64,000 nt of DNA from assembly GCA_963832225.1 (NCBI GenBank), contig CAWHTI010000013.1, positions 8,136-72,135 of the forward strand. Reading direction: 5' to 3'. The notes beneath the pieces are model-generated. The model made no database searches. It was not told the DNA's origin and saw nothing but the letters and a program-made list of their open reading frames with translations. Made by a program: the position numbers and the translations under genes. The number at the start of each line of letters is the position of its first letter. Within the stretch, counting starts at the first letter, position 1. Shown here one piece after another: positions 11,484-64,000 of this stretch. Origin of the DNA: an uncultured Actinomycetes bacterium (GTDB lineage: Bacteria; Actinomycetota; UBA4738; HRBIN12).

Positions 11484-11522
11484 CGGGTCATCCTCGCATC
11501 GCCGACGGGCCGGCGGACGTCA

Positions 11523-21088: not shown

Positions 21089-22020
21089 CCCTGGACACCC
21101 CGCCGGGAACCCGGAGGACCCTGCTCCGTCGCCTGCAGGTAGCCGTGCCGCTCCAGCGCCGGGGCAAGGGATGCCTCCAGCATCGCGACGTCATGGATCC
21201 CCAGGTCGCGCCGGTACGCATCGCGCCGCCCGGCGTCGAACCGGTAGCGGCGGAACCCCTGCTCGAACGCCGGCGTCCACGCGAGGCCCAGGTGGTCCAG
21301 TATCGCCCGCATGTGCTCGCGGGGCTCGGCGACGAAGTCCTCGTACCGGACCTCCAACCATCGGGCTTCGGGCACCAGCGCGCGGGCGGCCTCGAATGCG
21401 TCCATCAGCAGCTTCCACTCGAGCCCGGCGAGCACGGCGAACGAGCGACCGGACTCCTCCCACTCGCGCGCGTACGTCTCGGGCAATGGACCCCAGCCCC
21501 AGTGATCCGGGCCTCGGTAGCCCTGCCACCACGGCATCTGCAGGAACGAGTTGGCCACGGCGCGGCCGTCGCGCACCACGTTGATGAAGCGGGCCTCGGG
21601 AAAGATGCGCTGCACGAAGCCGGAGCGGGGCCAGCCGGTGAACTTGTGCAGGAAGAGCGGTCGGCCCTGGGCGGCGGCGCGCGTCTCGAAGAACGACCGG
21701 AAGCGACGCTCCAGCCACGGCGTGACGTCCTCGGCCAGGAGGTCGCGCAGCGGCGCGGAGATGGCCGGGGAGACCTCGCGATCGAGCGCCCGGTAGGCCT
21801 CGGACGGGGCGAAGCGGAGGCGTCCCTTCGTGGTGAACCGTTCCGGCACCCGCCGGTAGATGTCGTTGTTGAGGCGGCTCGGGAGTGCCGTGCGTGCCAG
21901 GCGGTCCTCGAGGTTGGACACGAACCCAACGTCCGGGTGCCGCGCGATGATCTCGTGCACCAGCGTGGAGCCGCACCGGCCGGTGCCCAGGACGAAGGCG
22001 AACTCAGCGTTCGAGCGCAT
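21085..22020 (-). CDS. Sulfotransferase
   Basis: VLGTGRCGST, HKFTG, NVVRDGRAVANS, EVRYEDFV motifs. Confidence 0.85.
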   Translation of the reverse strand: MRSNAEFAFVLGTGRCGSTLVHEIIARHPDVGFVSNLEDRLARTALPSRLNNDIYRRVPERFTTKGRLRFAPSEAYRALDREVSPAISAPLRDLLAEDVTPWLERRFRSFFETRAAAQGRPLFLHKFTGWPRSGFVQRIFPEARFINVVRDGRAVANSFLQMPWWQGYRGPDHWGWGPLPETYAREWEESGRSFAVLAGLEWKLLMDAFEAARALVPEARWLEVRYEDFVAEPREHMRAILDHLGLAWTPAFEQGFRRYRFDAGRRDAYRRDLGIHDVAMLEASLAPALERHGYLQATEQGPPGSRRGVQG

Positions 22021-22966
22021 AGCCGTGCTTCCTCAGCTCGTCGGATTGGATCTCGGTGATGGTACGGACGACGTCGTCGTCCAGCCTGGTCCGCCAGGCC
22101 TCGTTGCGGTCGGGGAAGCCGAGCGAGCGCACGGAGCGGTCCCAGGACCGGCTGGGCGCGAGGCCGGCGAAGTCCGCGAGCCGTTGGAGCGTGGGCACCG
22201 GCGCATCCAGGAACGACTCGTAGCTCAGCTCGAGGACCTGTCCGGGGGGAACCTGCGCGAGACCGGACTCCACCGCGCCCAGCTCTTCCACCCAGTTGCG
22301 AGCGCACATCGCCCACGGGTCCCTGCCCTCGGCCGCCCACCTCCCCGGCGTGTCCCCGTACCACCACACGATCGAGTCCGCCCACCAGTTCACCCTCGAC
22401 AGGGACAGCGCGACCGCGCGACCGTCGCGGACGAGCGAGATGAACCGGGCGTCGGGGAACGCTCGCAGGAGCAGCGGAATCCGCCGGTTGTTGGCTATCC
22501 GCTTGTTCACGAAGACCGGCGCGCCCGCCGCACGTCGGACCGCATCGATGGCCGTGCGCAGGTTCGCGGCCGCGAGATCGAGGGCCTCCGGCGTGAGCCT
22601 GTCGAACTGCGGAATGCCGGCGGCGGCGTAGACGGGCTCGCCCTCGTGCGGCATCGGGAAGAGCCGGTCGCGGATCGCGCGAGGTCGACCGTACACGTAC
22701 GCGTTGCTGCCGTCGGCTCCGAACCAGACCCGGCGGCGCGCGTGCGGCGCGTGCGGCGTGACACGGTTCAGGACGGCCGCCGGGGTCGCCGCGGGAACCC
22801 GGGCGAGCCAGTTGGAGATCCACGCCGACTCCGGGTGCATGCAGAGCAGCTTGTAGAGCATGCTCGTCCCCGACCGAGCCGGCCCGACCAGGAAGACCGG
22901 GGGCGGCGTGGGCGAACGATGGACGGCGTCGGGACGGGTCCGCTCACGGACCTGCACACGCACCAA
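22004..22966 (-). CDS. Sulfotransferase
   Basis: LVGPARSGTS, VNKRI, LVRDGRAVALS, LSYESFL motifs. Confidence 0.85.
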   Translation of the reverse strand: MVRVQVRERTRPDAVHRSPTPPPVFLVGPARSGTSMLYKLLCMHPESAWISNWLARVPAATPAAVLNRVTPHAPHARRRVWFGADGSNAYVYGRPRAIRDRLFPMPHEGEPVYAAAGIPQFDRLTPEALDLAAANLRTAIDAVRRAAGAPVFVNKRIANNRRIPLLLRAFPDARFISLVRDGRAVALSLSRVNWWADSIVWWYGDTPGRWAAEGRDPWAMCARNWVEELGAVESGLAQVPPGQVLELSYESFLDAPVPTLQRLADFAGLAPSRSWDRSVRSLGFPDRNEAWRTRLDDDVVRTITEIQSDELRKHGYALER

Positions 22967-22967
22967 C

Positions 22968-23760
22968 TCAGTACGCCCCGCGGCCGGAGAACACGGCGGC
23001 GACCGTGCGCGCCAGCAGGCGGGCGTCGAGGCGGAGGGACCAGGTCTCGATGTAGGCGATGTCCATGTCGACCCAGGTCTCGAAGTCGACGTCGGACCGA
23101 CCGCTCACCTGCCAGATGCAGGTGACGCCGGGCTTGACCTCGAGCCGACGCTGCTCGCGCGGGCCGTAGTGCAGGAACTCCTCCGGCAGCGGCGGACGTG
23201 GTCCCACCACGCTCATGTCGCCGCGCAGCACGTTCCACAGCTGGGGCAGCTCGTCGATGGACCAGCGGCGCAGCAGCCGGCCGACGCCCGTGACGCGCGG
23301 ATCGTCGCGGATCTTGAACACCGGACCGGAGTCGTGGATGTTCAGGTGCCCGTGATGTCCGCGGGTGCCGTGCGCCCCGTGGACCATCGAACGGAACTTC
23401 ATCATGCGGAACGGCCGGCCGCCCCGGCCGACCCGCTCGGAGACGTAGAACACCGGCCCGGGCGACGAGACCTTCACGGCAACCGCGGCCGAGAACAACA
23501 GCGGCGACAGCAGGAGGAGCCCCGTCAGGCTGCCGACGATGTCCACCGCGCGCTTGCAGGCCATCTGCCACCGGCGGGCCGCGAGCAGACCCCGGCGGGC
23601 GCGAACGACGTGCCAGCTTGCGCTCGCGGAGATCGATCACGGCGTCGGCGTGGCTGAGGTCGACGATCGCCTCGAACGCCTGGGGGTCCAGGCGTACCTC
23701 CGGGTCCATCTGGGCGACGTCCTTTCGCTCGGGGGCAGCTGCCGCCGTGGCGGGTTGCAT
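22968..23760 (-). CDS. Priming sugar (phosphoglycosyl) transferase, Bac_transf/WcaJ C-terminal type (frameshift ~23600; start 23760 or 23709)
   Basis: KRAVDI, KFRSM, DDPRVTGVGRLLRRWSIDELPQLWNVLRGDMSVVGPRP, KPGVT, W SLRLD motifs. Confidence 0.9.
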
Positions 23761-23993: not shown

Positions 23994-24986
23994 CTACCCG
24001 GCCTGGCCGGACGTACGCCTGGCGCCGGGCTCGACCGGCAGGCCGGCCTCGCGACGGATGCGGTCCAGCGGCGAGGGACGCAGGAACTCCATCAGGATGA
24101 TCACGCCGATGGCGAGCAGGAGACCGAAGGCGCCGGCGAAGAGCACCCGCCGCACGATGAAGGTGAGCCGGCTGGTGGGGCGGGCAGGGCTGGCCTCGAT
24201 CCGGTCGTTCTCCTCCGCCTGCCGCACGATGCCCTGGGACTGGAAGAGCTCGTTGCTCATGAACCGCCGCGCCGCGATCGCGTCGTCCAGCTTGGCCTGC
24301 GCCGACTGGTACTGGTCCTGACGTTCTGTGAACTGTGTGGTCAGCTCGTCGAGCTTCCGCTGCGCCGCCGCCTCCTGCGGCGTTCCCTGGGCCGCACCCA
24401 GCTCATCCAGCGCGTTCGTCAGGCGCCGCTCGGCGGTCGCCTCGAACAGGTTGAAGTTGACGATCCTCGTTTCCTGGGCGGCGGCCAGCCACTGCTCCTC
24501 AGCCGCCTGGTAGGCCTCGTCGGCGGCGTCGTACTGCGCCTGGATGACGTCGAGCTGGATCTGGGCGATCTGCGTCAGCGCGAGGCTCGACGCGGTCTGC
24601 GCGACCTCGCCGGCGCGCTCCGCGTTCGTCCCCGTGTACGTGACCTCGACGACGCCGCTCGTCCCCTCGCGCCTGGTGGCGATGCCGGCGCCGATCGCGC
24701 TCTTGGGCTCGCCGGTGGCCTCGAACGTCGCCTGGGCCACGCTGTCGGAGGTGATGGCGCCCTCGAAGTCCGCGACGAACTGCGAGACGGCGCTGGACAG
24801 CGGCCCGCTCGTCTCCTGATCGGGCAGGATCACGGTGGCCGTCGCCCGGTAGGTCTGCGGCTCCAGGATCGCGAGGACCCCGGCGATGAGCATGGCCGCC
24901 ACCGGGATCACGATGAGCAGGCTCAGCCTGCGGCCCATGACGCGGGTCCAGTCTCGAATCTCGACGCCGTTGGGCTTCACGTGCAC
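23994..24986 (-). CDS. Wzz/Wzc-N-like polysaccharide co-polymerase / chain-length regulator
   Basis: N-terminal TM, PQTYRATATVIL motif, coiled-coil periplasmic region, Pro-rich stretch before a C-terminal TM. Confidence 0.75.
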   Translation of the reverse strand: MHVKPNGVEIRDWTRVMGRRLSLLIVIPVAAMLIAGVLAILEPQTYRATATVILPDQETSGPLSSAVSQFVADFEGAITSDSVAQATFEATGEPKSAIGAGIATRREGTSGVVEVTYTGTNAERAGEVAQTASSLALTQIAQIQLDVIQAQYDAADEAYQAAEEQWLAAAQETRIVNFNLFEATAERRLTNALDELGAAQGTPQEAAAQRKLDELTTQFTERQDQYQSAQAKLDDAIAARRFMSNELFQSQGIVRQAEENDRIEASPARPTSRLTFIVRRVLFAGAFGLLLAIGVIILMEFLRPSPLDRIRREAGLPVEPGARRTSGQAG

Positions 24987-25253: not shown

Positions 25254-25907
25254 ATGACGTTGAAGCGCCTCGTCCCCGCGAGCCTCGTCGCCGCCATGGC
25301 GATCGCCGGCTTCGCCACCGGTTCCGCCACGGCCGATGCCGGCTCCATGGAACGCCGTCCGCAGGCCTGCACGATCGAGGGCACGTCCGGCGACGACATC
25401 CTCACCGGCACCCCGGGCGCCGACGTGATCTGCGGAGGGCGCGGCAACGACACGATCCACGCGGAGAACGGCAACGACATCGTCTACGGCGGCCGGGGCA
25501 ACGACGTGATCTTCGGTGGCAAGGGCGAGGATCGCCTCTACGGCAACGGGAACGACGACACCCTGACGGGCGACGAGGGCCCGGACGCCTTGGTGGGCAA
25601 GCGCGGCAACGATACGCTTCGCGGGAGCACCGGCGCCGACACCCTGAAGGGCGGCGGCGGCAACGACTTCGCGCGCGGCGGCGACCAGGCCGACATGATC
25701 GACGGCGGCAAGGGTGACGACGACCTCGCGGGCAGCGGCGACAACGACGTGATGACGGGCGGCGCGGGAGCGGACATGATCGCGGGATGGGCGGGCGACG
25801 ACACGCTGCACGGCACCGACGCCGTCGAGGCCAACGACCAGCTCAAGGGCTCGGGCGGGACCGACACCTGCGACGCGGACGCAGGCGACACCGTCACGGG
25901 TTGCTGA
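25254..25907 (+). CDS. Secreted RTX/hemolysin-type calcium-binding repeat protein
   Basis: Signal peptide; over 10 GGxGxDxL nonapeptides; Cys-containing N- and C-caps. Confidence 0.9.
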   Translation: MTLKRLVPASLVAAMAIAGFATGSATADAGSMERRPQACTIEGTSGDDILTGTPGADVICGGRGNDTIHAENGNDIVYGGRGNDVIFGGKGEDRLYGNGNDDTLTGDEGPDALVGKRGNDTLRGSTGADTLKGGGGNDFARGGDQADMIDGGKGDDDLAGSGDNDVMTGGAGADMIAGWAGDDTLHGTDAVEANDQLKGSGGTDTCDADAGDTVTGC

Positions 25908-25922: not shown

Positions 25923-26825
25923 GTGACGGGGGTCGTCTTCGGCTACGAGGTCGGTTCCCCGCTGGCTTCGACCTACCTGCGGGCCGGACGCGGCGACCCG
26001 ATCGCGATCGACGAGGTCGACCCGGGGCCGGAGCCCGACGTCGAGCCCGTCCTCGAGTGGCGGCCGCGCCCCGACACCCCGTTCCAGGCGCGGCTCCACG
26101 GGGACCCGGACAGGTACGGCGTGTGGATCGACGGGATGGGCGGTTTCGGCGTCGAGCCGGACGTCCCCCGCATCACGGTGCCGCCCTCCGCCGACACGGT
26201 TCGGCGCGAGGAGCGGCTCTGGGGCGTCCCGGCCGCACTGTGCTTCTCGCGCCGGGGCGACCTGCCGCTGCACGCCGCGGCGATCGACGTCGGGGGCCGA
26301 GCGCTCGTGTTCTGCGGGCCCGGCCGGTTCGGCAAGACCACGCTCGCGACGGCGTTCCTGCGGGCCGGGCACCGGGTGCTCTCGGAGGACCTCGTCTGTG
26401 TGCGTCAGACCGAGGGCGGGCCGGCGGTGCTTCCCGGCCCGGCGATGCTCCGGGTTCGGCCGGATGTCGCGGAACGCCTCGGGCCGATCCACGGCACCCG
26501 GGTGGTGCTGCTCGACGGGGAGCGCGTGCACCTGGCGATGGAGGACGGTCTGCGAGGCAGCGGCGACCCGGTGCCGCTCGCCGGCATCATCATCCTGAAG
26601 CGCGGCCTCCCCGAGATCACGCTCTACCGGGTCGAGCCCGAGCGATTCCTGCCCGAGCTCTTCTCGGTGAGCTTCAACCTGCCGTCGGACATCGAGCGCG
26701 CCCGGTCCTTCGGTGGCGTGGTCGACCTGGCCGGCTCGACGCCCCTGTGGCTCCTGGATCGTCCGCTGGAGTTCGCTACGCTTGACGAGGTGCTCGACAC
26801 GGTGACCGGCACATGTCTGTCATGA
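25923..26825 (+). CDS. HPr kinase-like serine kinase (lasso peptide kinase type)
   Basis: LPLHAAAI, Walker A GPGRFGKTT, LSEDL motifs; operon with B2 and nucleotidyltransferase. Confidence 0.8.
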   Translation: MTGVVFGYEVGSPLASTYLRAGRGDPIAIDEVDPGPEPDVEPVLEWRPRPDTPFQARLHGDPDRYGVWIDGMGGFGVEPDVPRITVPPSADTVRREERLWGVPAALCFSRRGDLPLHAAAIDVGGRALVFCGPGRFGKTTLATAFLRAGHRVLSEDLVCVRQTEGGPAVLPGPAMLRVRPDVAERLGPIHGTRVVLLDGERVHLAMEDGLRGSGDPVPLAGIIILKRGLPEITLYRVEPERFLPELFSVSFNLPSDIERARSFGGVVDLAGSTPLWLLDRPLEFATLDEVLDTVTGTCLS

Positions 26826-27226
26826 CCCGCGACCGGGTCTCCGTGATGCACAAGGTCGGGCTGGTGCTGCGCACATGGTTCTGGTTCGCGACCGCCTGGA
26901 CCCGTCTGCGACGCCGGCCGATCCCGGTCGTGGTCGCGGGACTGGCCGTCATGGATCGGCCCGCAGCTCGGCCGGTGGCTCCTCGCCGGCTCGGCCGGAT
27001 CGTGGCACGCTCGCTGTCGGTCGGACCCTTCCGCGTCCGGTGCCTGTTCACGTCGATCGTCCTGTTCCGGCTGCTCCGAGCCCAGGGCGACGAGGCGCAG
27101 CTCGTGATCGGCCTCCCGCTCGAACCCCGGGACAAGGACGCCCACGCGTGGGTCGAGCTCGCGGGCCGAGACGTCGGGCCGCCGCCGGGTCGCGGGCGGC
27201 ACGTCGAGCTCGCGAGGTACGGGTGA
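26813..27226 (+). CDS. Lasso peptide biosynthesis B2 protein (leader peptidase, transglutaminase-like)
   Basis: RCLFTS (catalytic Cys), LVIG, DAHAWVE (His) motifs; 137 aa. Confidence 0.9.
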   Translation: MSVMTRDRVSVMHKVGLVLRTWFWFATAWTRLRRRPIPVVVAGLAVMDRPAARPVAPRRLGRIVARSLSVGPFRVRCLFTSIVLFRLLRAQGDEAQLVIGLPLEPRDKDAHAWVELAGRDVGPPPGRGRHVELARYG

Positions 27227-28392
27227 ACGCCGACCCGGTCATCGCGGCGGCACTCGTGGCCTCGGCGCGCGAGCACGACGACCCGCCGGCCGAGGTCCAG
27301 CGGGCGGTCGACCTCGACCGCGTCGAGGCGCTGCTGCGGCTCGCGAAGTTCCACCGGATGATCCCGTTCGTGCACCGGGATCTCCGCAGACTCGAGGGCG
27401 TGGACGGCCGGACGATGCAGATGCTCGATCGCTACGAGGTGACGCAGACGGCGAACCAGATGCGGATCGTCACCGATCTGGCGGGCCTGGCGGAGACGCT
27501 CGCGCCGCTGGACGTGCCCTGGTTGACGTTCAAGGGGCCGGTCGCGGCGCAGCTCCTCTACGACCGGCCGGAGCTCCGGACCTATCGCGATCTCGACGTG
27601 CTCGTGCCGCGGGCCGACTTCACGCGCACCCTGTCGTTCCTCCGCGGGACCGGCCTGGAGGTGCTCGACCGCAACTGGACGCTGATCAGCCGCGAGCAGC
27701 GGGGGCAGCTACACCTCACCCTCCCCCTCGGCACGGTCGCCGACATCCATTGGCATCTGCTGAACCGCGGGGTGGTGCGGCACGCCTTCGACGTGGACAC
27801 GGATGGGCTGCTGCGACGGGCCCGGACCGTGACGGTGAGCGGGGTCGCGGCCGGCACGCTGTCGCCGGCCGACACCCTGGTGCACCTGGCCCTGCACGCC
27901 GCGCTCGCCGGCGGCGATCGATTGATCTGGTTGAAGGACATCGAGCGGTCCCTCGCGGTGGAGGAGCCGGACTGGGAGGAGGTCGTCGAACGAGCGCTGT
28001 CGTGGCGATCGGGGGCCGCCACCGCGGTGATGCTGCGACGCGCCTCGGAGGTCCTGGGGGCCGGGATCCCCCTGTGGGTACTGCGCGACCTCGACCCCTC
28101 GGGCGTCCGGCGCCGCGTGACGGAGGCCTTCGACCGGCGGTGGCCGGCCGGCGCCGCGACCGGCGAGCTGACGCCGGCCGCGCTGTGGCCCCAGGTGGTT
28201 CGCGACGGACGGCTCGCCACGATCGGGTCCGTCCTCCAGCGCTCGGTCCGCCGTCCGGCCGGCGCGCTCCGACAGCTGCTCGGCGAGCCGGGCGGCGGCG
28301 GCCGCGACCACGAGCCCGCGGCGGTGCTCCATCCCTCCGGCGGGGACGGCATGCGCGACCGGTACCTCCGAGAGGTGGACGACGGCGCCTGA
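27223..28392 (+). CDS. Nucleotidyltransferase family protein (NTP_transf_5 type, lasso-associated)
   Basis: GTG start overlapping the B2 stop; LTFKGP, RTYRDLDVLV, DIHWHL, LIWLKD motifs. Confidence 0.85.
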   Translation: MNADPVIAAALVASAREHDDPPAEVQRAVDLDRVEALLRLAKFHRMIPFVHRDLRRLEGVDGRTMQMLDRYEVTQTANQMRIVTDLAGLAETLAPLDVPWLTFKGPVAAQLLYDRPELRTYRDLDVLVPRADFTRTLSFLRGTGLEVLDRNWTLISREQRGQLHLTLPLGTVADIHWHLLNRGVVRHAFDVDTDGLLRRARTVTVSGVAAGTLSPADTLVHLALHAALAGGDRLIWLKDIERSLAVEEPDWEEVVERALSWRSGAATAVMLRRASEVLGAGIPLWVLRDLDPSGVRRRVTEAFDRRWPAGAATGELTPAALWPQVVRDGRLATIGSVLQRSVRRPAGALRQLLGEPGGGGRDHEPAAVLHPSGGDGMRDRYLREVDDGA

Positions 28393-28413
28393 AGCTGCCC
28401 GGCACCCGGTCTT

Positions 28414-29349
28414 TCAGATCTCGGCCCGGTACGCCGCGGCCAGCCGATCCTCCAGATCGGTACAGAGCTCGCGGACCCGGGCGTCGATCGGCAACGGCGG
28501 GCGGCTCCCGGCGGCTCGGCGATCGATGTGCTCCGCCAGTTCGGGCCGGTACGGGAAGCCCAGGAACGCGCAGACGCGTCCGATCGCCGCCTCCGGGTCC
28601 TCCACGGTCGCCTCGTAGGACGCGAGCACGACGTCGGTGCGGGCGTCCAGGCCGAGGTCGAAGAACAGCTGGTTGCGCAGCCACCAGAACAACGCCGCCC
28701 CCGACTCCGCCGACATCGCGCCCAGGTCGAAGGTGGCGATCAGCTCGAGGCGCGCCGCCGACAGGCCGCCCGCCTGCCAGATGCCGGTGTCGCCCGCCGC
28801 GATGCGACGTAGCGCCTGGAGGTTGCTGTCGCCGAACTTCGTCGTCGACGACCGCACCCTGCCGTCCACGCCGCGATAGGCCCAGATCGCGCGGGCCGGG
28901 CTCGGCGTGGCGATCCCGTCCAGGAGATCGGCGGTCCGGTGCGAGTCGATCAGCGGCTTGAACAGCACGTAGCGATGTCCGCTGCGCTCCACGAGCGCGC
29001 GGATCACGTCGTCCGGTCGCAGCTGGAACCGGTCGAAGGCCGCGCGGTCGTTCTCGTTGCGCACCTCGAACTCGGGCGATCGTTCCAGGCCGCGCACGAG
29101 CATGTTGGTCCCGGATCGCTGCACGCCCACCACGAATACGGGGACGGCGTCCGGCGCCACGTCGTGGCTGCGACGCCACCGACGCTTGGCGAGCGCGAGC
29201 GGGATCCGTTGCAGCGGATCGAGCTGATCCTCCTCGATCAGACGTCCGATGCCCTGCTCCCGGGCCCACCGGACGTGACGGCCCACGCGCCGCCGCAGCC
29301 GGGCAGAGCCGGACTCGGGCGGTGTCGCGACCGGCCCGTTCGCTCCCAC
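28414..29349 (-). CDS. Sulfotransferase-domain protein directly downstream of the RRE gene
   Basis: VVGVQRSGTNML PAPS loop, FKPL, WAYRGVDGRVRS, LASYE motifs. Confidence 0.75.
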   Translation of the reverse strand: MGANGPVATPPESGSARLRRRVGRHVRWAREQGIGRLIEEDQLDPLQRIPLALAKRRWRRSHDVAPDAVPVFVVGVQRSGTNMLVRGLERSPEFEVRNENDRAAFDRFQLRPDDVIRALVERSGHRYVLFKPLIDSHRTADLLDGIATPSPARAIWAYRGVDGRVRSSTTKFGDSNLQALRRIAAGDTGIWQAGGLSAARLELIATFDLGAMSAESGAALFWWLRNQLFFDLGLDARTDVVLASYEATVEDPEAAIGRVCAFLGFPYRPELAEHIDRRAAGSRPPLPIDARVRELCTDLEDRLAAAYRAEI

Positions 29350-29357
29350 CCCGACGC

Positions 29358-29651
29358 TCAGACCTGCGCGCTCTGCAGCTCGACCAGCTGCCGTTCGCTC
29401 AACTCGGCCAGGAACGACTCCACGTCGCCCTCGAGGTCGGACGGTGGGTCGTCGAGGCGGTCGCGGAGCGCGGACACCAGATCGCCGAAGGCGATGTCGG
29501 ACTCGCTCAACTCCCAGATCGCGGCGCCCACCTCGTTCACGCCGTGGTACTGCGTGCTGTCCAGGTGCAGCAGCACACCGCCCGAGCCCTCCGCCAGCCG
29601 TCGGAACACGGCCCGGGGGTTGCGGTGCACCATCGTGGTCGGATCGATCAT
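29358..29651 (-). CDS. PqqD-family RiPP recognition element (lasso B1)
   Basis: MIDP..VFRRLAEGSGGVLLHLDSTQYHGVNEVGAAIWELS..DVESFLAELSERQLV, 97 aa; C-terminal part of track ORF 29358-30716. Confidence 0.9.
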   Translation of the reverse strand: MIDPTTMVHRNPRAVFRRLAEGSGGVLLHLDSTQYHGVNEVGAAIWELSESDIAFGDLVSALRDRLDDPPSDLEGDVESFLAELSERQLVELQSAQV

Positions 29652-29671
29652 CCGTGGCTCCTCTCGTCGGC

Positions 29672-30523
29672 TCAGTACAGACCCAGCGTTCCGCGCCGTC
29701 GCTCGCGCTCCAGCGCCCGGCGGAAGGCGAAGATCCCCACCGCGAGCGAGACCACGGCGTAGGGCAGCAGGATCCCCACCCGGGGGATCGTCTCCGCCCA
29801 CCCCGCGTCCCCCAGCAACGCCTCCCGGGCGGCGGTCAGCGCGATCGTCACGGGACTGTACGAGAAGACCACCTCCGCCCAGTGGGGGAAGACGTTGGTC
29901 GGGAAGTACGTCCCCGAGCCGATCGTGATGAACGTGGTCGCGATCCCGATGACGCCCGTGCCTCGCTTGAACGTGAGGGTCCACGCCGCCGCCAGCACGC
30001 CGAGCCCCCACACGAACGGGATGAATGCGAGCAGGACCAGCATCGTCGGGCCGAGGCCCGACCATTGGAAGCTGGTGCCGAAGACGACCGTGGTGAGCCC
30101 CAGGAAGATGAAGGTCCGCACGGGCACGTACACGAGGTCGTACACCACCGAGCCCATCTGGATCGTGGTGTAGGCGGTAGGCGTCAGCAGGAGCGACTCG
30201 AGCGTCCCCTGCAGCTGCTCCTGCCGGATCACCGAGTACACGCGCCCGAGTCCCACCGCCATGAACGAGCTGATAGCGATGCCGATCGCCACGAACTCCA
30301 TGTACGTCGGCCTGCTGCCGCCGAACTCCGGGATGGCGCCCGGCCTGACGATCAGGCCCACGAAGTTGAAGACGACGACCTGCACGATCATGGAGAGCCA
30401 ATCGGTGATGAACGACATCCGATAGCTCCAGGCGACCAGGAAGTCCCTGCGCAGGAACGCGGTCAGCTTCGAGACCTCGCCGCGGACGGCGCCGATCCGC
30501 CCGACGGGCGCCTCCGCGCTCAT
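29672..30523 (-). CDS. ABC-2 type exporter permease
   Basis: About 6 TM segments, EQLQGTLESLLLTP motif. Confidence 0.9.
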   Translation of the reverse strand: MSAEAPVGRIGAVRGEVSKLTAFLRRDFLVAWSYRMSFITDWLSMIVQVVVFNFVGLIVRPGAIPEFGGSRPTYMEFVAIGIAISSFMAVGLGRVYSVIRQEQLQGTLESLLLTPTAYTTIQMGSVVYDLVYVPVRTFIFLGLTTVVFGTSFQWSGLGPTMLVLLAFIPFVWGLGVLAAAWTLTFKRGTGVIGIATTFITIGSGTYFPTNVFPHWAEVVFSYSPVTIALTAAREALLGDAGWAETIPRVGILLPYAVVSLAVGIFAFRRALERERRRGTLGLY

Positions 30524-31512
30524 CGGGACCCCTCCGTGGTGAGGAACAGGAACGCCGCCTCGATCTCGGAGCGCTCCTCCCGGCAGGTGAGCACGGCGAG
30601 GCCGGCGGCGTCCAGCCCCGCGATCGCCGCTCCGAGCACCACGTCCTCGCGGAGCGCCACCAGGAAGTGCTGCCCGTCCGAGTCTCCGGACAGGGCCACC
30701 TCGCCGATGCCGGCAAGGGCGCCCCGGGCGCGGCCCAGGACGTCGCCGTCGCCCCGCAGATGCACCAGGTACCGGCGGGCGATCGTCACGGCCATGAGCT
30801 CGGGGACCGTGCCCTCGAACCGCACGGAGCCCTCGCGCAGGACCGACACGCGGTCGGCGAACCCGCGGATCTCGTCGATGCGCTGGGTCGCCCAGATCAC
30901 CGCCGTGCCGCGGGCCCGGGCCTGCGAGACCAGCTCCTGCACCCGGCGGGCGGCCTCCGGATCGAGGTCGTGCGTCGCCTCGTCCACGAACAGGATCGGC
31001 GGCTCCATCAGCAGGGCGCGCGCCACCGACAGGCGCTTCTGCATGCCGTGCGAGTAGGTCCCGATCGCCCGGCGGGCGGCATCCTCGAGGTCGACGTCGC
31101 GGAGCACCTGCCAGGCCCGGTCGGACGCCGCTCGCGCCGTCAGCCCGTGCATCCGGGCGAAGAACCGGAGGTTCTCCAGACCCGACAGGCGCATGTAGAA
31201 GGTCCGGTCGCCCGAGGGGACCAGACCGATCGCGCTGCGGGCGCGCCGCGACATCAGCTCGCCGGCGGACGACCCCAGCACGCGGACCTGGCCGGCGTCG
31301 GGGCCGGTGAGGCCCGTGAGGATCCGCACCAGCGTGGTCTTGCCCGCGCCGTTGGGCCCCAGCAGCGCGTGGATCTCACCGGGCATGACGGCCAGGGACA
31401 CGTCGCGGAGCGCCTGCTTGTCCCCGAAGCTCCGGGTGACGCCGAGGGCCTCGATCGCGGGCGTCGCGGTCGCGGACCCCCCGGTGGGACGGGCCGTGCC
31501 CACCACGGTCAC
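30520..31512 (-). CDS. ABC exporter ATP-binding subunit
   Basis: LLGPNGAGKTT, YSHGMQKRL, LFVDE; GTG start overlaps the cyclase stop. Confidence 0.9.
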   Translation of the reverse strand: MTVVGTARPTGGSATATPAIEALGVTRSFGDKQALRDVSLAVMPGEIHALLGPNGAGKTTLVRILTGLTGPDAGQVRVLGSSAGELMSRRARSAIGLVPSGDRTFYMRLSGLENLRFFARMHGLTARAASDRAWQVLRDVDLEDAARRAIGTYSHGMQKRLSVARALLMEPPILFVDEATHDLDPEAARRVQELVSQARARGTAVIWATQRIDEIRGFADRVSVLREGSVRFEGTVPELMAVTIARRYLVHLRGDGDVLGRARGALAGIGEVALSGDSDGQHFLVALREDVVLGAAIAGLDAAGLAVLTCREERSEIEAAFLFLTTEGSR

Positions 31513-33308
31513 GGTCCCTCCCACAGGTCCAGGAACGCGTGCACCATCGCCAGGTCCTTCGCCCAGATGTACTCGAACACGTTCATCTCCGCCCGGTCGA
31601 TCTGCTCGGCCAGCAGCCCGTAGTCGACGCCGGGCATCCGGAAGGAGCCCGACGCCGTCCACCGGCGCAGGTGGTCGTACTCGATGGCCGACTCGGCCGC
31701 CGCGTTGAAGACCGTCTTCTCGCGCCGGTCGAGGATCGGGTCCGGCACCCGCCCCCGAAGGAGCTCCCGTACCAGTCCCTTCGTCCGCACGTCCGGGAAC
31801 TTGACCTCGGCCGGCAGGCTCAGGAAGAACTCCCACACGTCCACGTCCGCCCACGGGTAGCGGGCGCGGACGCCGACCGTCTCCTGGACGACCTCGTTGG
31901 CCTCCGCGGCGAGCCCGGGTCCGACCAGGCCGCCGACCTGGGTCGCGCGCCACCGGCCGGCGGCCGAGCCGGTGCCCTCGACGGCACGCTCGTTCACCTT
32001 GGCGATGTCGATCCACGGCGGCACCCGCTGCCCGCGGCGAGGCGGGCGCCGCCGCAGGTACGCGGCGTAGAGCGACGCCGGCACGAAGGCGGCGCCGAGC
32101 TGGCGGGCGAGACCCGCGGCGGGGACGCCCTTGCCTCGCTGCATCCGCACGTGGCGGGCCAACGGGCCGAGGCGTCCGCGTCGCAGCAGGTGCGCGAGGA
32201 GATGACCGCGCATGTCGAAGACCAGCTCGGCCACGGCGCCGTTCATCACGCTGCGCAGACCCAGCTCCGCGGCGACGGCGTAGTGCCGTTCCGCGTCCGC
32301 GGGAGGAAACACCGGCACCGGCCCGTCGAACCGGTCCGCCCACTCGCGCAGCCGGTCGAGCTGCGGCGCATCACGTCGATACGTGTGCAGATCCATCCCG
32401 AGCCGGTCCACCACGATCTGGACCCAGGCCGATTCGTCGACGCTCGGGATGATCCGGATAGACGGCGGTCAGGGCCGGCATCGGCGTGCCGAAGCGTCGC
32501 TCGAATGCAGGCGCCGCGTAGGCGGCGATCGCCGGCGAGTCGATCCCGCCGGACAGCGAGACCGCGTCGGCGCCGGTCAGCATGCGGGCCGTGGCCGCGC
32601 CGAACACCTCGTCGAAGCGGTCCTGCAGCTCGTCGGCCGTGTAGCGCGCGGTCTCCAGGAGTCGCTCGGGGTGCCAGTACCGCCACGTGGCGCTCCCTGC
32701 CGCCTCGCCACGGATCGCCGTCCCCTTCGGCAGGCGGGTGACGCCGGCCAGGGCCGCCGGCGTCTGATCACCGTAGTTGCCGTAGAAGATGCGCTGCAGC
32801 ACGTCGAGGTCGGGCTCGCGCCGCAGGCCCGCGCCGGCCACGACCTGCTTGGCCTCGCTCGCCACCACCAGCGCTCCGGCCCCGTCGTGAAGGAACAGGG
32901 GCCGGTAGCCGATGTGATCGCGCGCGCACCACAGGCGGGCGCCGTCGGTCACCGCGACCGCGAACACACCTCGCATCCGGGCGAACGCCCGCTCCCCGTC
33001 GGCCCGGAACAGGGCCGCCACGACGCCGGCCGGCTCCGCGGACGAGAGCGTGACCCCCGCCCGCTTCAGCTCGCGGACGAGCTCCTCCAGGTTGTCGAGC
33101 CGGCCGGTGAAGGCCGCCGAGCAGGTCGCCCTCGTGCGAAAGCGAGGACTCCGGGAGGTCGTCGGTGGCGGTCACGCCCAGGGCGCAGGCGCCGCGGACG
33201 AGCGTGCCCCGCACCGGTCCCCGATGCGGGGCCGCCACGCAGCGCGCGCTCGACCGTGGCGACGTCCGGGCGCTGCCGGCGGGCGAGCAGCGCGGCGAGG
33301 GAACCCAT
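31509..33308 (-). CDS. Lasso peptide cyclase (asparagine synthetase-like isopeptide-bond-forming enzyme); three single-base insertions (~33235, ~33115, ~32435)
   Basis: Reconstructed: MGSLAA (no N-terminal Cys), FTGRLDNL, ARDHIGYRPL, SLSGGIDS ATP motif, RYPWAD, KGLVRELL. Confidence 0.85.
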
Positions 33309-33354
33309 GGGAAGGAGTGTAGGGAGGTCGCGCAGACGGACCCGGGAGACACGA

Positions 33355-33383
33355 AACCGCCCGGCCGTGTGGGCCGGGCGGTT
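33355..33383 (-). terminator. Stem-loop between precursor and cyclase (terminator/attenuator or mRNA stabiliser)
   Basis: 12-bp perfect stem AACCGCCCGGCC / GGCCGGGCGGTT with 5-nt loop; only a short T run on the minus strand. Confidence 0.65.
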
Positions 33384-33413
33384 CGAGGTTCGGTTTCGGT
33401 GCTCTTCCGGGCC

Positions 33414-33556
33414 CTACGAGCCGGCCGGGTGCGAGTACTCGAGGAAGTTGTCGGTCTCGTAGTCGGTGAAGTCGCTCTTGTCACCGGCGCCGGGGTTGTC
33501 GAACGTGTGACCCGCGATCGAGCCGAAGTCCTTCACTGTGGCTTCTCGTACTTCAT
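33414..33556 (-). CDS. Lasso peptide precursor, 47 aa after restoring one base: MKYEKPTVKDFGSIAGHTF-DNPGAGDKSDFTDYETDNFLEYSHPAGS
   Basis: AGGAGG RBS before ATG 33556; 143 bp to TAG (1 short of 144); leader matches YxxPx(L/V)xxxGxxxxxT; immediately upstream of the cyclase. Confidence 0.85.
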
Positions 33557-33599
33557 GCGTCCTCCTCGGGGGTCGGAGCGGGGGTGGCTATGTCAGGGG

Positions 33600-33629
33600 A
33601 CACTAGTTCCCGCAGGCGGCCCATGTCAA
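33600..33629 (-). promoter_or_regulatory. Sigma70/HrdB-type promoter for the precursor operon
   Basis: TTGACA (33629-33624), 18-bp spacer, TAGTGT (33605-33600), 43 bp upstream of the ATG. Confidence 0.7.
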
Positions 33630-33775
33630 ACGGTTCGAACGGGCATTCCGTGCCTGCAACGGCCCTAGGCCCAAGCGCCCCAGGCTGCCTCCGGAGGCCT
33701 CTCAGGCAGACCGGGGACGCCGGACGCCCGTGCCACCTTTGCCGAGGCCGGAGACCCGTCGGTAATGTGCGGGCC

Positions 33776-34485
33776 ATGCTGGACACGGACGCGCTCACGC
33801 CCTGGATCCAGCCGCAGCACCTCTCGGAGGACGCGCTCGCCGGCTACCGCGGGTCCATGGCGGCCCACCCCGCACGGATGGTCGTCCTGCACGACGTCAT
33901 GGCGGCGGCGCCGGTCGAACGCCTGGCCGGCTTCCTGGCGAGCGACGCCGAGTACACGATCGAGCACGGCCTCTACTCCCAGCACGACGGGGTCGAGTCG
34001 GCGACGTGGGAGGCGGCGCCCGTCGAGGACCGGTTCTTCCGCTTCGGCAAGCTGAGCGGACAGCGGCCGGAGGCGATGCTCTCCGACAACAGCCTGACGT
34101 ACCTCCAGTGGCGCACGTTCGTCACGGAGCCTCCGTTCCGGGCGTTCTTCGAGTCCGTGAGCGGGGTTGGAGCTCGGCGCCAGCGACGACTTCGGCTGCC
34201 ACGAGTTCCGGGTGGGCGACTTCCTCCTTGCGCACGACGATGCCAATCGCGACCGGCGGGTGGCCCTGGTGATGTACCTCACGCCCTCGTGGCGGCCGGA
34301 GTTCGGCGGGGCGCTGGCGATGAGGCAGCCGACGGCATCGGTCGACCGGGTCGAGGCGTCGTTCAACACGATGGTCGTCTTCGACACGCTGGCCGGCAGC
34401 AGCCACCACATCGAGCGGATCGAGGACGGGGCCGGCCGGACAGGCCCGCCGGACCTTCGGGGGCTGGTTCCCGAACCCATCGTGA
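33776..34485 (+). CDS. 2OG-Fe(II) oxygenase (prolyl-hydroxylase-like), frameshifts ~34165 and ~34445
   Basis: LAHDDA (HxD), VALVMYL, WRPEFGGAL, SHHIERI (distal His), RTFGGWF. Confidence 0.75.
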
Positions 34486-35575
34486 ACGAGGCCAAGAGCG
34501 AGGCCAAGAACGGGACCGGGAGCGACGCCGGCGTCGCGATCAGCGTGGTGATCCCCACGAGGAACCGAGCGCACCTCCTGGCCGACTGCCTGGCGTCGCT
34601 GGCCGCACAGGTGGCAGCCGTGCCGTTCGAGGTCATCGTCGTCGACAACGCGTCGACGGACGACACGCCGCGGTGGCGACGGCATGGACCGCCCGCGACG
34701 ACCGGTTCCGCCTCGTTCGCGAGGAGGTCCTGGGGCGGGCGGCGGCCCTCAACGCGGGGATGGCGGCCGCCCGCGGGGACCTGCTGCTCTTCACCGACGA
34801 CGACGTGTACGTGCAGCCCGGCTTCGTGGAGGCGTACCGGCGGTTCTTCGACGGCCACGCCGAGGGCCACGTGTTCGCGGGCGGGGCGATCCACTCGGTG
34901 CCCATGGACATCGAGTGGCCGTTCTGGTTCTCGGCGCGGGCGGCCCGGTCGTTGATCCTCGTGGACTGGGGGCCGCAGCGGGCGCTGATCCCCGGCGAGA
35001 CGGTGTGGGGCGGCAACACGGCCGCGCCGCGGCGGCTCTTCGACGCGCTGGGGACCTGGAACGAGGAGATGGGGGTGCGCGGGGACACCCGCCCGCCGAT
35101 CGAGCGCCCGGAGCTGAACGAGGACCTCGAGTTCGAGGAGCGGGTGCGGGCCGCGGGCGGCGAGATCTGGTTCGTCGCCGAGGCCGTGGTGAACCACCGC
35201 ACCACGCTCCCCGGCCCGCGGATCTGCCTCCGCAAGGGGTTCGGAACGGGACGCAACGACTACAACCGCGCGTTCCGGCCGGGGAAGCCGGACGACCGCG
35301 TCCGCGGTCCGCGGAACGTCCGGTCCTTGTCCGCGTGGTGCTCGGCGCTGCTCCGCTACCTGGTGTGGGCGCTGATCTTCCGGCTGCGCCCGGGCCGCAC
35401 CGCCTTCGACCGCGCGTGGTTCGCCGCATGGTCGAGCGGGTGGCGGATGGAGGATCTGCTCGCCGACGGCGTCCACGACGGCTTCGATCGCAGGATCCGC
35501 AGCGTCACGTGGGGGGCCACGCGGCGGGCGGCGCGCCTGGCGCCAGAGGAGCTGACGGAGGAGCTGACCGGATGA
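34482..35575 (+). CDS. Glycosyltransferase family 2 (frameshift ~34675)
   Basis: SVVIPTRNR, VVDNASTDDT, LFTDDDVYV, EDLEF motifs. Confidence 0.85.
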
Positions 35576-37020
35576 GCGAGGGCCGCGGGTCGCCCCCCGC
35601 GTGGCGGCCTCTCGACGCCCTCGCGCTGGCCGCCGTCACCCTCGCGGGCGGTCTGATCCGGCTGTGGCAGCTGAACGTGCCCGACCGCATCGTGTTCGAC
35701 GAGGCGTACTACGCCCACGACGCCTGCGTCTTCGTGCGGCCGGCGTCCGCCTGCGGCGGCATCGGCGAGGCCTTCTCCGAGGAGCACCCGTTGCTGGGCA
35801 AGTGGATCGTGGCGGCGGGGATCAAGCTGTTCGGCAACGAGCCGTTCGGCTGGCGGATCATGTCGGTCGTGGCGGGCACGGCCGCCATCGCGCTCCTGTT
35901 CGTACTCGCCCGGCGCCTCCTCCGTTCCAGGGTCGCGGCGACCCTGGCCGCCGGACTGCTCGCCGTCGACGGGATGCACGTCGTGCTGTCCAGGGTGGCG
36001 ATGCTCGACGTGTTCGTGACCACGTTCTCGCTCGCCACGGTGCTGTTCGTGGTGATCGACCGCGACCGCGAGCGGCGAGCGGACCGGAGACGCGAGCGGA
36101 CCGGTCGCGAGCGGATCGCGGATCGGCCGTGGCTCCTGGCGGCCGGGGTCGCCGGCGGCGCCGCGGTGGCGACGAAGTGGTCGGGCCTGCCCTTCCTGGC
36201 CATGTCGGCCATCCTGGTGCTGGTGTGGGACCGGCGGGCGCGCCGCACCGCGCCGGCGGCCGGCGGGACGTCCACTGCCCGCTGGGCCGGCCTCGGCGCG
36301 ATCGCGGTCGCCCTGATCCTGGTGCCGCTCGCTGTCTACGTGCTCTCCTATGCCGGACGCCTCGACGGACGGCTGCTCGCCCTGCCGTGGCAGCACGACT
36401 CGTGGGCCTGGGCGTTCGTCCGGCGCCAGGTGCGCATGCTGTCGTTCCACGCCGACCTGGCCGGCGCCTATCCGTACGAATCGCCCGCCTGGTCGTGGCC
36501 GATGTTGAAGCGGCCGGTGGTGTTCGCGTTCGAGGTCGAGGCCGGCCGATTCCGCGAGATCCTGGCGCTCGGCAACCCGGTGGTCTGGTGGGGAGGCGCG
36601 GCGGCGACGATCGCGTGCGCCGTCCGGTGGCTGCGGGCCCGGGGCGGTCCCGAGGGCGTCATCCTGGCCGGCGTCGCGGCGGGCTACCTGTGGTGGCTCC
36701 CGGTGACGTCCTCGCGCTCGTTCTCTTTCCTCTTCTATCTCACGCCGGCCGTGCCGTTCCTCTGCCTCGCCGTCGCCCGGGTGGCGCAGCGGACGTGGGG
36801 CTCGGTCGCGGGCCGGGCGGCGAGCGCGATCGTCGCGCTGGCAGCCGTCTGGGCGTTGGTCTTCTTCCTGCCGGTGCTGACCTTCCGGCCGCTCGATGGC
36901 GGAGACTGGGCGTCGCGGTTGTGGTTCACCGCGTGCCGTCCGGAGTCGGTGGTGGGGGATCCGCCGCGTCCCACGTCCTCGACCGTGACGGCGCCGCCCG
37001 AGGGCTGGTGCTGGATATGA
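35572..37020 (+). CDS. Protein O-mannosyltransferase-like (PMT/GT39) membrane glycosyltransferase
   Basis: VFDEAYY, EHPLLGKW, FGWR, SRVAMLDVF, TKWSG, YESPAWSWP, GNPVVWW motifs. Confidence 0.85.
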   Translation: MSEGRGSPPAWRPLDALALAAVTLAGGLIRLWQLNVPDRIVFDEAYYAHDACVFVRPASACGGIGEAFSEEHPLLGKWIVAAGIKLFGNEPFGWRIMSVVAGTAAIALLFVLARRLLRSRVAATLAAGLLAVDGMHVVLSRVAMLDVFVTTFSLATVLFVVIDRDRERRADRRRERTGRERIADRPWLLAAGVAGGAAVATKWSGLPFLAMSAILVLVWDRRARRTAPAAGGTSTARWAGLGAIAVALILVPLAVYVLSYAGRLDGRLLALPWQHDSWAWAFVRRQVRMLSFHADLAGAYPYESPAWSWPMLKRPVVFAFEVEAGRFREILALGNPVVWWGGAAATIACAVRWLRARGGPEGVILAGVAAGYLWWLPVTSSRSFSFLFYLTPAVPFLCLAVARVAQRTWGSVAGRAASAIVALAAVWALVFFLPVLTFRPLDGGDWASRLWFTACRPESVVGDPPRPTSSTVTAPPEGWCWI

Positions 37021-37718
37021 GGAGGGGGGATCGCGTGGCCGTGCTCTCACCGCACCTCGACGACGCGGTGCTCTCCCTGGGTGCGGCCATCGCGGCCTGG
37101 TCGCGCGCGGGGGCGGAGGTGCGCGTGGTGACCGTGCTCGCCGGACGGCCGGACTCCACGCTCCCTGCGGGCCCCTGGGACACCGAGACCGGCTTCGCGA
37201 CCGAGGGGGAGGCGACCCGGGCCCGTCGCCTCGAGGACCGCTCCGCCTGCGCGACCCTGGGCGCGGCACCCGTCTGGTTGGACCACGCGGACGAGCAGTA
37301 CGACCGTGGGGGCTCCGACGACGAGATCTGGCCGGAGATCCTCGAGGGCGTGGCCGGCGCCTCGACGGTCCTCGCCCCCGGCTTCCCGCTGTCACACCGG
37401 GATCACGCGTGGCTCGCGCTGATGACGCTGGCCCGGCGGGATCCGGCGTGGCGGGTGGGGCTGTACGTGGAGCAGCCCTACGCGATCGGCGCGGGACGCC
37501 CCCGGGATCATCGCGGACGGTTCGGGTTCGAGCCGGCGTTCGTTCCGATCCGCACCTCGTGGCGGCACCGGCGGGCGAAGCGCCGCGCGCTCGAGGCCTA
37601 CGGCTCGCAGCACGGACAGCTCGGATGGGTGGTCTCCGGGACCTGGGGCGACCTGCAGCGGCGGCTGGCCGCGCAGGAGCGTCGCCGCGGCGGAGAGATG
37701 GTGGCATGGGTGACCTGA
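37017..37718 (+). CDS. PIG-L family deacetylase
   Basis: SPHLDDAVLS, RRLED, SHRDH motifs. Confidence 0.85.
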   Translation: MRRGDRVAVLSPHLDDAVLSLGAAIAAWSRAGAEVRVVTVLAGRPDSTLPAGPWDTETGFATEGEATRARRLEDRSACATLGAAPVWLDHADEQYDRGGSDDEIWPEILEGVAGASTVLAPGFPLSHRDHAWLALMTLARRDPAWRVGLYVEQPYAIGAGRPRDHRGRFGFEPAFVPIRTSWRHRRAKRRALEAYGSQHGQLGWVVSGTWGDLQRRLAAQERRRGGEMVAWVT

Positions 37719-38473
37719 TCTCGAGGGGGGTCGCGCTGCTGCCCGCCGGGATCCGGCGACGGCTCCGGGCCGCGAACCACCGGTGGCTCGTCGCCGTCGG
37801 ACGTCGCCGGCGCTCCTCCGTCCGCACTCCGGACATGGGTGAGCTGCGGCGGACGGAGCCCTTCAGCCGCCGCTGGGGCAACGACCGGGGGCGGGCGGTG
37901 GACCGCTTCTACATCGAGCGGTTCCTGCGATCGCACGCCTCGGACATCCGCGGACGGACGCTGGAGGTCGCGAACCGCGCGTACACGGACCGGTTCGGGA
38001 CCGGCGTCGAGGTCGCCGACGTCCTGCACGTGGAGGAGGGCAATCCGATGGCCACGATCGTCGGGGATCTCGCCGACGAGACGACGCTGCCCGCGGACGC
38101 CTTCGACTGCTTCATCCTCACGCAGACCCTGCAGTCGATCTACGACGTCCGCACCGCCGTGCGCACCGTGCATCGGATCCTCGCGCCGGGAGGCGTGGTG
38201 CTCGCCTCCGTGCCGGGGATCAGCCAGATCGTGCACCCCGACTACGAGATGTGGGGCGACTACTGGCGCTTCACGGCCCACGCCATGGAGCGGCTGTTCT
38301 CCGAGGCCGGGTTCGCTTCCGGTGATCTCGAGGTGCGGGTCCACGGCAACGTCCTGGCGGCGACCGCGTTCCTGTACGGCCTGGCCTCGCGCGAGCTCAC
38401 CCCGCAGGAGCTCGACGTGGATGACGGCGACAACTATCAGCTCGTGATCACGGTCCGCGGCGTCAAGCGGTGA
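37706..38473 (+). CDS. Class I SAM-dependent methyltransferase (glycan-associated type)
   Basis: DRGRAVDRFYIERFL, FDCFILTQTL, ILAPGG, DYWRFT motifs. Confidence 0.8.
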   Translation: MGDLISRGVALLPAGIRRRLRAANHRWLVAVGRRRRSSVRTPDMGELRRTEPFSRRWGNDRGRAVDRFYIERFLRSHASDIRGRTLEVANRAYTDRFGTGVEVADVLHVEEGNPMATIVGDLADETTLPADAFDCFILTQTLQSIYDVRTAVRTVHRILAPGGVVLASVPGISQIVHPDYEMWGDYWRFTAHAMERLFSEAGFASGDLEVRVHGNVLAATAFLYGLASRELTPQELDVDDGDNYQLVITVRGVKR

Positions 38474-63925: not shown

Positions 63926-64000
63926 CCGGCGAGGACCGCACCACCGACGACCTCAGCGCGGCTGCTCGCGACGAGTACGACCGGATCGCAGAGGTCTACG
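63922..64000 (+). CDS. Start of a CDS cut by the window edge (possibly a methyltransferase)
   Basis: GTGA overlap with the GT2 stop; ..DEYDRIAEVY resembles methyltransferase N-termini. Confidence 0.35.
   Translation, partial: MTGEDRTTDDLSAAARDEYDRIAEVY

Follow-up and report, generated by a model that had tools for sequence, protein, structure and literature searches.

The defining feature of lasso peptides is a ring that runs from the N-terminus to an Asp or Glu at position 7-9 of the core. Kinase, nucleotidyltransferase (N) and sulfotransferase genes have precedents in lasso clusters (PMC8498205; PMC4289311). Pseudomycoidin carries a phosphate and a hexose on a Ser (PMC6993621, PMC9266682), and the nucleotidyltransferase of its cluster, PsmN, depends on an Asp pair for activity (PMC6993621). 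In the paeninodin system of Paenibacillus dendritiformis and its Firmicutes kin the kinase works on the linear precursor, and some paeninodin-related clusters carry putative sulfotransferase and nucleotidyltransferase genes whose role is unknown (PMC8498205); no function was reported for the sulfotransferases found in lasso clusters (PMC8498205, PMC4289311). BsfK of Bradymonas sediminis phosphorylates the internal Ser3 and not the C-terminal Ser, and the lasso leader motif YxxPxL is located at positions -17 to -12 (PMC10368454). Here, we describe a locus of this kind in a 64,000-nucleotide stretch of contig CAWHTI010000013.1 of an uncultured Actinomycetes bacterium; the whole stretch is referred to as the window. 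The locus is a real lasso-type ribosomal peptide gene cluster with kinase, nucleotidyltransferase and sulfotransferase tailoring, and its tailoring probably also includes a hydroxylase and glycosyltransferases. It encodes a precursor that belongs to a large, previously undescribed family from soil bacteria.

The window has a G+C content of ~71% and originates from a 3.5 Mb genome of 17 contigs with a marker-gene completeness of 73%, a metagenome-assembled genome (MAG) of the class Actinomycetes, in line with the actinobacterial lineage named in an earlier sequence-only reading of the window. Reading frames were picked via third-position G+C and then checked against profile libraries (Pfam/NCBIfam). 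Related loci were collected by pattern scans, 17 from species genomes and 24 from metagenomes, and span Actinomycetota, Chloroflexota, Gemmatimonadota and one Steroidobacteraceae MAG. Three of the sequences used for comparison are close to the window: L055, a k141 short-read contig from a relative, L054, an independent assembly whose contig stops within the ATPase gene, short of the cyclase, and the same-genus genome G001. What these data show directly are the identities of the genes, the conservation of their catalytic motifs, and their synteny and co-occurrence.

The sequence-only reading had claimed a complete lasso-type set, i.e. precursor (A), ribosomally synthesised and post-translationally modified peptide (RiPP) recognition element (RRE, B1), leader peptidase (B2), cyclase (C) and an ATP-binding cassette (ABC) pair, together with a kinase, an NTP_transf_5 protein and a sulfotransferase. 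Indeed, profiles found all of them where it had placed them, and the families that it had proposed for a profile scan (Asn_synthase, Transglut_core3, PqqD, NTP_transf_5 and Hpr_kinase_C) all matched window proteins. The plus strand encodes an HprK-like peptide kinase (25923-26825, 300 amino acids (aa); Hpr_kinase_C, E 0.006; TIGR04352 HprK_rel_A, E 4e-9), B2 (26813-27226, about 134-137 aa; Transglut_core3, E 7e-15; NF033537) and a PsmN-like NTP_transf_5 nucleotidyltransferase (27223-28392, 389 aa; PF14907, E 1.4e-39, 136.7 bits, full profile covered). These genes are convergent with a minus-strand series that reaches from the sulfotransferase to the precursor and comprises a sulfotransferase of the 3'-phosphoadenosine-5'-phosphosulfate (PAPS) type (28414-29349, 311 aa; Sulfotransfer_3/_1), the PqqD-like RRE (29358-29651, 97 aa; PqqD, E 2.3e-14), an ABC-2 permease (29672-30523, 283 aa; ABC2_membrane, E 3e-12), a DrrA-like ABC ATPase (30520-31512, about 330 aa; ABC_tran, E 4e-30; drrA subfamily, E 2e-57), the Asn-synthetase-like macrolactam cyclase (31509-33308, 598 aa equivalent; Asn_synthase and GATase_7 matches on separate pieces) and the precursor (33414-33555, 47 aa equivalent). 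The sulfotransferase starts 8 bp past the RRE stop, and the GTG start of the ATPase gene overlaps the cyclase stop. The intact RRE genes of L054 and L055 likewise encode 97 aa, and the permease aligned with that of L055 in one high-scoring segment pair at 82% identity.

Catalytic residues were kept across 20-27 relatives. In the kinase D113, H117, the Walker A motif GKTT (G137-K138-T139-T140) and D156 were at least 95% conserved among 27 relatives; thus, the His-Lys-Asp-Asp set required in HPr-type kinases is present (D113, H117, K138, D156), although profile scores are weak. B2 scored 46.9 bits against the lasso_biosyn_B2 model NF033537, above its cut-off of 33, and its C77 and H111 were conserved among relatives, so that the pair of a B1 RRE and a B2 Cys protease of transglutaminase fold known from lasso clusters is encoded. 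D123-L-D125 of the nucleotidyltransferase, conserved as D123-x-D125, corresponds to the Asp pair of PsmN, and the cyclase has an intact SLSGGIDSP motif (SGGIDS). Some profile results count against a lasso-type assignment: the kinase reached 36 bits with TIGR04352 (cut-off 200), the RRE matched lasso_PqqD_Bac under the cut-off (E 1e-9), the G001 orthologue of the cyclase had the lasso cyclase model NF033535 as top NCBIfam hit with 141 bits (cut-off 525), and no NCBIfam precursor model matched the window precursor. Sequence searches of the PDB with sulfotransferase, kinase and cyclase gave generic relatives only; HPr kinases were matched by the kinase with E 0.016.

The precursor gene is preceded by GGAGG, 4 nt 5' of its ATG. 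Read through, its product consists of the leader MKYEKP.TVKDFGSIAGHTF and the core DNPGAGDKSDFTDYETDNFLEYSHPAGS, with the predicted cleavage between the two. The leader has the spacing Y(-17)xxP(-14)x[ILV](-12)x3G(-8)x5T(-2)F(-1), and since this fits the canonical lasso rule (YxxPxL at -17 to -12, Thr at -2), cleavage was placed after HTF. P6, D10, G12, I14, T18 and F19 were invariant among 27 aligned relatives, and intact 47-aa relatives are P0019 and the precursor of L055 (92% identity). With a profile built from 27 precursors, no fewer than 398 protein clusters of the family were retrieved, and the 120 clusters listed carry neither a functional name nor a Pfam match. Literature searches on the precursor motifs and on sulfated or glycosylated lasso peptides yielded nothing specific, and no paper that mentions sequences of the family or describes the cluster was found in the literature searched.

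In related loci of sufficient length the cyclase was always accompanied by an RRE and an HprK-like kinase, the latter being found in every such locus. B2 was present in most loci but not detected in some, e.g. L016-L018, L033 and L037, and NTP_transf_5 was found in a subset. Two further genes were seen in the relatives. A protein of 430-520 aa with a weak NTP_transf_5-like N-terminus fused to a HemK/MTS-type methyltransferase adjoins precursor or cyclase in many related clusters (L009 of G001, 10973-12541; L015, 7188-8474; L017, 4530-5840; L018, 457-1944; L019, 11072-12391; L028, 11033-12385) and is absent from the window. In one sub-lineage a Glu/Leu/Phe/Val dehydrogenase gene adjoins the kinase gene (L015, 13977-15035; L016, 4824-5876; L017, 11326-12417).

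Precursor and cyclase are interrupted in the assembly. Frame changes near 32445, 33122 and 33220 divide the cyclase into four pieces, and a single change in codons 6-8 divides the precursor into two. All four breaks of 25923-33555 lie in A and C, the two indispensable genes, and none in the seven other genes (25923-31512), which match full length in single pieces; this distribution speaks against a functional cluster and would be expected of a decaying remnant in which the frameshifts are real and the strain makes no peptide. However, the cyclase pieces aligned end to end with intact orthologues of 587-598 aa and the precursor pieces abutted on intact relatives, in both cases without loss of residues at the junctions and with conserved motifs intact. 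The breaks extend to neighbouring genes (two in the oxygenase, one each in the GT2 and Bac_transf genes described below), and essential genes elsewhere in the genome are affected too: infB (C4:109000-110450) falls into four or more pieces over about 1.1 kb, and dnaK (C3:16123-17934) and an aminoacyl-tRNA synthetase gene (C1:193450-198541) are likewise split. Segmentation of the whole genome by G+C phase (Viterbi) found that 662 of 3040 coding segments (~22%) end without a stop and resume in another frame of the same strand, a lower bound since the method detected only one of the four breaks in precursor and cyclase. The switches are clustered (variance/mean 2.5), with four or more in 9% of 2.1-kb bins. 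Further, G001 holds an intact precursor and a 587-aa cyclase, and L055 contains the whole locus in the same gene order, with proteins 74-88% identical to those of the window, a 47-aa precursor, a 598-aa cyclase and an unbroken series of genes that starts with oxygenase and GT2, includes the lasso genes and ends with Bac_transf; PIG-L alone was called as two short open reading frames (ORFs). Because L055 keeps the locus intact and essential genes such as infB are broken alike, the breaks are most likely assembly indels, and we regard a decayed remnant as very unlikely. A functional lasso-type RiPP biosynthetic cluster with breaks that arose in assembly is the reading we consider probable. The caution of the sequence-only reading that the assembly be polished is justified, and apparent pseudogenes anywhere in this genome need read support.

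The core of the window precursor has D1 and D7 and ends in Ser. This would suit an ordinary peptide of the paeninodin/pseudomycoidin type with a ring between the α-amine of D1 and D7 and a C-terminal Ser bearing phosphate and sugar, whereby the glycan genes, and perhaps the sulfotransferase, would be unrelated neighbours. Kinase and NTP_transf_5 are a known tailoring pair, and two sulfotransferase homologues occur without lasso genes, both of which speak for such a product. The family, however, argues otherwise, and in part also against a classical lasso peptide. An Asp or Glu at core position 7-9 was found in 9 of 31 and 50 of 118 family cores (~40%), and in 28 of 143 distinct cores the first acidic residue is a conserved Asp near position 16-17, one of them belonging to the precursor of L030, which sits in a complete cluster with the full enzyme set. 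In the sister subfamily QTPGxGTKS, otherwise nearly alike the window subfamily DNPGxGDKS, Thr replaces Asp at position 7. Since the canonical acceptor is unconserved in the family, the predicted D1-D7 ring is doubtful, and the canonical macrolactam assumed in the sequence-only reading has no family-wide support; judged from these alignments, the product may be no classical lasso. The C-terminal Ser, strictly conserved in the paeninodin group, ends about 60% of the cores of this family (last residue, n=118: S 72, P 27, A 8, G 5, D 3), which weakens a paeninodin-type label based on it. Moreover, in L014, L023 and L029 tailoring and glycan genes are dispersed among the core genes, contrary to what is expected of mere neighbours. 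Therefore, we judge the ordinary type to be unlikely.

What the cores share lies further downstream. Near the C-terminus, Asp-x3-4-Glu-x-Ser is near-invariant (D17, E21 and S23 of the window core), the Ser of the internal E-x-S being at least 90% conserved, and a Lys 8-10 residues N-terminal of the conserved Asp was found in 141 of 143 cores at any core length (26-46 aa). Hence D17 (or E21), and not D7, is the family-conserved candidate for the acceptor. Because the E-x-S Ser is almost invariant, the C-terminal Ser is conserved to ~60% only and BsfK sets a precedent, the kinase may act on the internal Ser. Of 16 cores with a single Cys before the Lys, 15 carry an odd number of Cys behind it; among the 124 cores that lack such a Cys this was never seen. 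The covariation is seen in TRC...GECSC versus TRA...GEYSC and in L057 versus L058, and the precursors concerned are found in L033/L035, L024/L026/L046, L039, L025 and L057/L058. Such a pattern implies disulfides that would tie the N-terminal segment to the core tail, and since Cys parity couples the two, the N-terminal part seems to stay in the mature peptide. Candidates for the ring, which are inseparable in silico, are a lactam between the Lys and Asp side chains, an ordinary 8-10-membered ring formed after a further cut behind the Lys, and a large ring from the α-amine to D17. A further candidate, cleavage immediately ahead of a ring of 7-8 residues that closes on the conserved Glu, was rejected: position -2 would be unconserved and the tail would have just 5-8 residues. 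With the acceptor often missing, the Lys-Asp spacing fixed and the N-terminal part apparently kept, the family may not make classical lassos at all: a ring that joins Asp to the side chain of the Lys or an unusually large ring, in a phospho-, glyco- and sulfopeptide made with or attached to a lipid-linked sulfated surface glycan, is a possibility that we put forward tentatively.

Within the lasso-type cluster, a GC-rich hairpin is located between precursor and cyclase (33340-33385, minus strand) with a 13-bp stem followed by UUUCGUGU. The region folds with -51.2 kcal/mol over 96 nt (z = -4.1); a simple terminator scan made no call there, and the hairpin is a possible attenuator.

Divergently from the precursor, the plus strand encodes a prolyl-hydroxylase-like 2-oxoglutarate (2OG)-Fe(II) oxygenase (~33761-34485, 240 aa equivalent, two frame changes; 2OG-FeII_Oxy_4/_3), a family 2 glycosyltransferase (GT2; 34482-35566, 348 aa equivalent; Glycos_transf_2), a PMT-family (GT-C) membrane glycosyltransferase (35572-37020; PMT, PMT_2, PMT_4TMC), a PIG-L/LmbE-family de-N-acetylase (37017-37718; PIG-L, E 2e-12) and a methyltransferase dependent on S-adenosylmethionine (37706-38473, 255 aa). 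The oxygenase is 74% identical to the intact L055 gene product, the GT2 79-88% and the methyltransferase 78% to their L055 counterparts. The frame change of the GT2 lies near 34667, with profile positions 1-40 and 43-114 on adjoining frame pieces. A fusion of oxygenase and GT2 was ruled out, as the oxygenase C-terminus and stop codon were found in a third frame. GT2 and PMT had been taken for flanking genes on the right of the cluster, and their identity was confirmed by profiles; mere flanks they are probably not, since together with the oxygenase, PIG-L and methyltransferase genes they travel with related clusters (L014, L030, L045, L023/L029, L055). Oxygenase homologues are found inside the L014 cluster and adjoining the L030 and L045 clusters, in each case accompanied by a GT2. 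In L014 oxygenase, GT2, PIG-L and methyltransferase genes, the last between PIG-L and GT2, lie between the cyclase and the RRE, B2 and precursor genes; in L023 and L029 PMT, GT87-like and GT4 genes are interleaved with core genes, with the PMT homologue immediately upstream of the precursor. Because homologues of the block recur beside or inside related clusters, though differently arranged, gene neighbourhood indicates that the block from oxygenase to methyltransferase is probably part of the pathway and that the cluster extends from 25923 to 38473. Directly after the methyltransferase follows an intact ORF of 1150 aa (38495-41947, plus strand), which G001 and L055 lack at this position; judged from its sequence, the product putatively has an adenylate/guanylate-cyclase domain, then an AAA ATPase and TPR-like repeats.

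The sulfotransferase of the cluster is a single-copy gene and merely remotely related to the other sulfotransferases of the contig. Homologues form 829 clusters, and the L054 copy is 95% identical. Its AlphaFold2 model (predicted local distance difference test 86) matched the CurM sulfotransferase, TPST1/2 and heparan 3-OST about equally in Foldseek, with template modelling (TM) scores of 0.4-0.5; the modelled fold is of the generic PAPS type and does not discriminate the substrate class. Seven genomic contexts of homologues were sampled, all among glycan or NHL-propeller genes. Lasso-type genes lay within 2-6 kb in five (L054, L055, L057, L058, L059); the other two, which tell against a dedicated role in peptide tailoring, lie in glycan islands and have no lasso gene closer than 10 kb. 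In L056, a 1.1-Mb contig, an orthologue with 66% identity (10001-10930) is located between a GerE response regulator and Bac_transf. The lasso genes and the oxygenase/GT2/PMT block are both absent from L056, as if they had been gained or lost together. Thus, the sulfotransferase family is found in glycan islands with and without lasso genes, and the peptide is no more than a candidate substrate.

To the left of the cluster, profile matches identified Wzz (24018-24986) and a Bac_transf priming transferase (22971-23721, one frame change), as the sequence-only reading had described, and besides two sulfotransferases (20956-22969) and a PQQ/Ig beta-propeller protein. A gene for a secreted protein of 217 aa (25254-25907, plus strand), which consists almost wholly of RTX calcium-binding repeats (E 2.5e-61), separates Wzz from the kinase; L054 and L055 have conserved it, and G001 lacks it. 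The Sulfotransfer_3 paralogues detected in the genome are all on this contig, at 8932-9847, 20956-22969 and 62175-64000 and, beyond the window, at C13 78945-82991, and have Wzx-like, Bac_transf and NHL/PQQ propeller genes around them. This arrangement points to a large sulfated-glycan island on this contig. In at least eight further lineages, priming transferase or lipid-linked glycan genes (Bac_transf, WecG, Wzx, Wzz-BY kinase, GHL15) are found within a few kb of the cluster. The recurring linkage lends some support to the possible cell-surface role of the peptide suggested in the sequence-only reading.

From the gene content of the lasso-type cluster we infer the following order of steps, with its substrates and ring position. 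The 47-aa precursor would be bound by the PqqD-like RRE through its YxxPxV leader motif, and the HprK-like kinase would phosphorylate a Ser of the still-linear peptide. B2 would then cut off the leader after Thr(-2)-Phe(-1), and the Asn-synthetase-like cyclase would adenylate an Asp or Glu side chain and close the macrolactam. The NTP_transf_5 enzyme could decorate the phosphate, as PsmN does in pseudomycoidin. The divergent module would tailor the peptide further: the 2OG oxygenase by hydroxylation, GT2 and the PMT-type GT-C enzyme by glycosylation, PIG-L by de-N-acetylation of the sugar and the methyltransferase by methylation. The in-operon sulfotransferase may put a sulfate on the peptide or its sugar, and the DrrAB-type ABC-2 pair would export the product. 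The suggestion of the sequence-only reading that the locus makes an undescribed, multiply modified lasso peptide holds in part: the tailoring genes are present and no description turned up in the literature searched, but the canonical ring and sulfation of the peptide are not borne out in the same way.

Genome-mining tools such as RODEO score candidates by the rule of an Asp or Glu at position 7-9. With a full lasso enzyme set and cores that mostly break this rule, the family would escape such tools or be predicted wrongly, and it is recurrently linked to kinase, glycosylation and sulfotransferase genes. At stake are other ring types made by homologues of lasso cyclases, the role of the sulfotransferase, and the coupling of a ribosomal peptide to surface glycan assembly.

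In sum, the cluster most resembles the pseudomycoidin and paeninodin systems. With the pseudomycoidin cluster (psmCAKB1B2ND, Bacillus pseudomycoides) it shares C, B1, B2, the HprK-like kinase and a DxD NTP_transf_5 protein; the pseudomycoidin cluster, however, is from Firmicutes, has a canonical core with a C-terminal Ser and lacks sulfotransferase, oxygenase, GT2, PMT and PIG-L genes, and the window's precursor family, unlike pseudomycoidin, has no conserved acceptor at position 7-9. With paeninodin it shares the leader YxxPxLx3Gx5Tx, but kinase, RRE and cyclase of the window fall under the family-model cut-offs, the exporter is of the ABC-2 (DrrAB) type and the locus is linked to glycan genes. 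The bsf cluster (BsfA/B1/B2/C/D/K/N) likewise has an N gene and YxxPxL at -17 to -12 (PMC10368454) and differs by a canonical Gly1-Asp8 ring, an Ile at -2 and the lack of sulfotransferase and glycosylation genes. Like the window, the canucin cluster encodes an Fe/2OG enzyme, CanE, which tailors the linear lasso precursor (PMC9266682). CanE hydroxylates a C-terminal Asp, whereas the window oxygenase is prolyl-hydroxylase-like (Ofd1/P4H Pfam families) and paired with a GT2. As far as can be read from the sequences, new with respect to pseudomycoidin and paeninodin are the non-canonical core family, the absence of a strict C-terminal Ser, the added hydroxylase/glycosylation module and the recurring linkage to glycan assembly.

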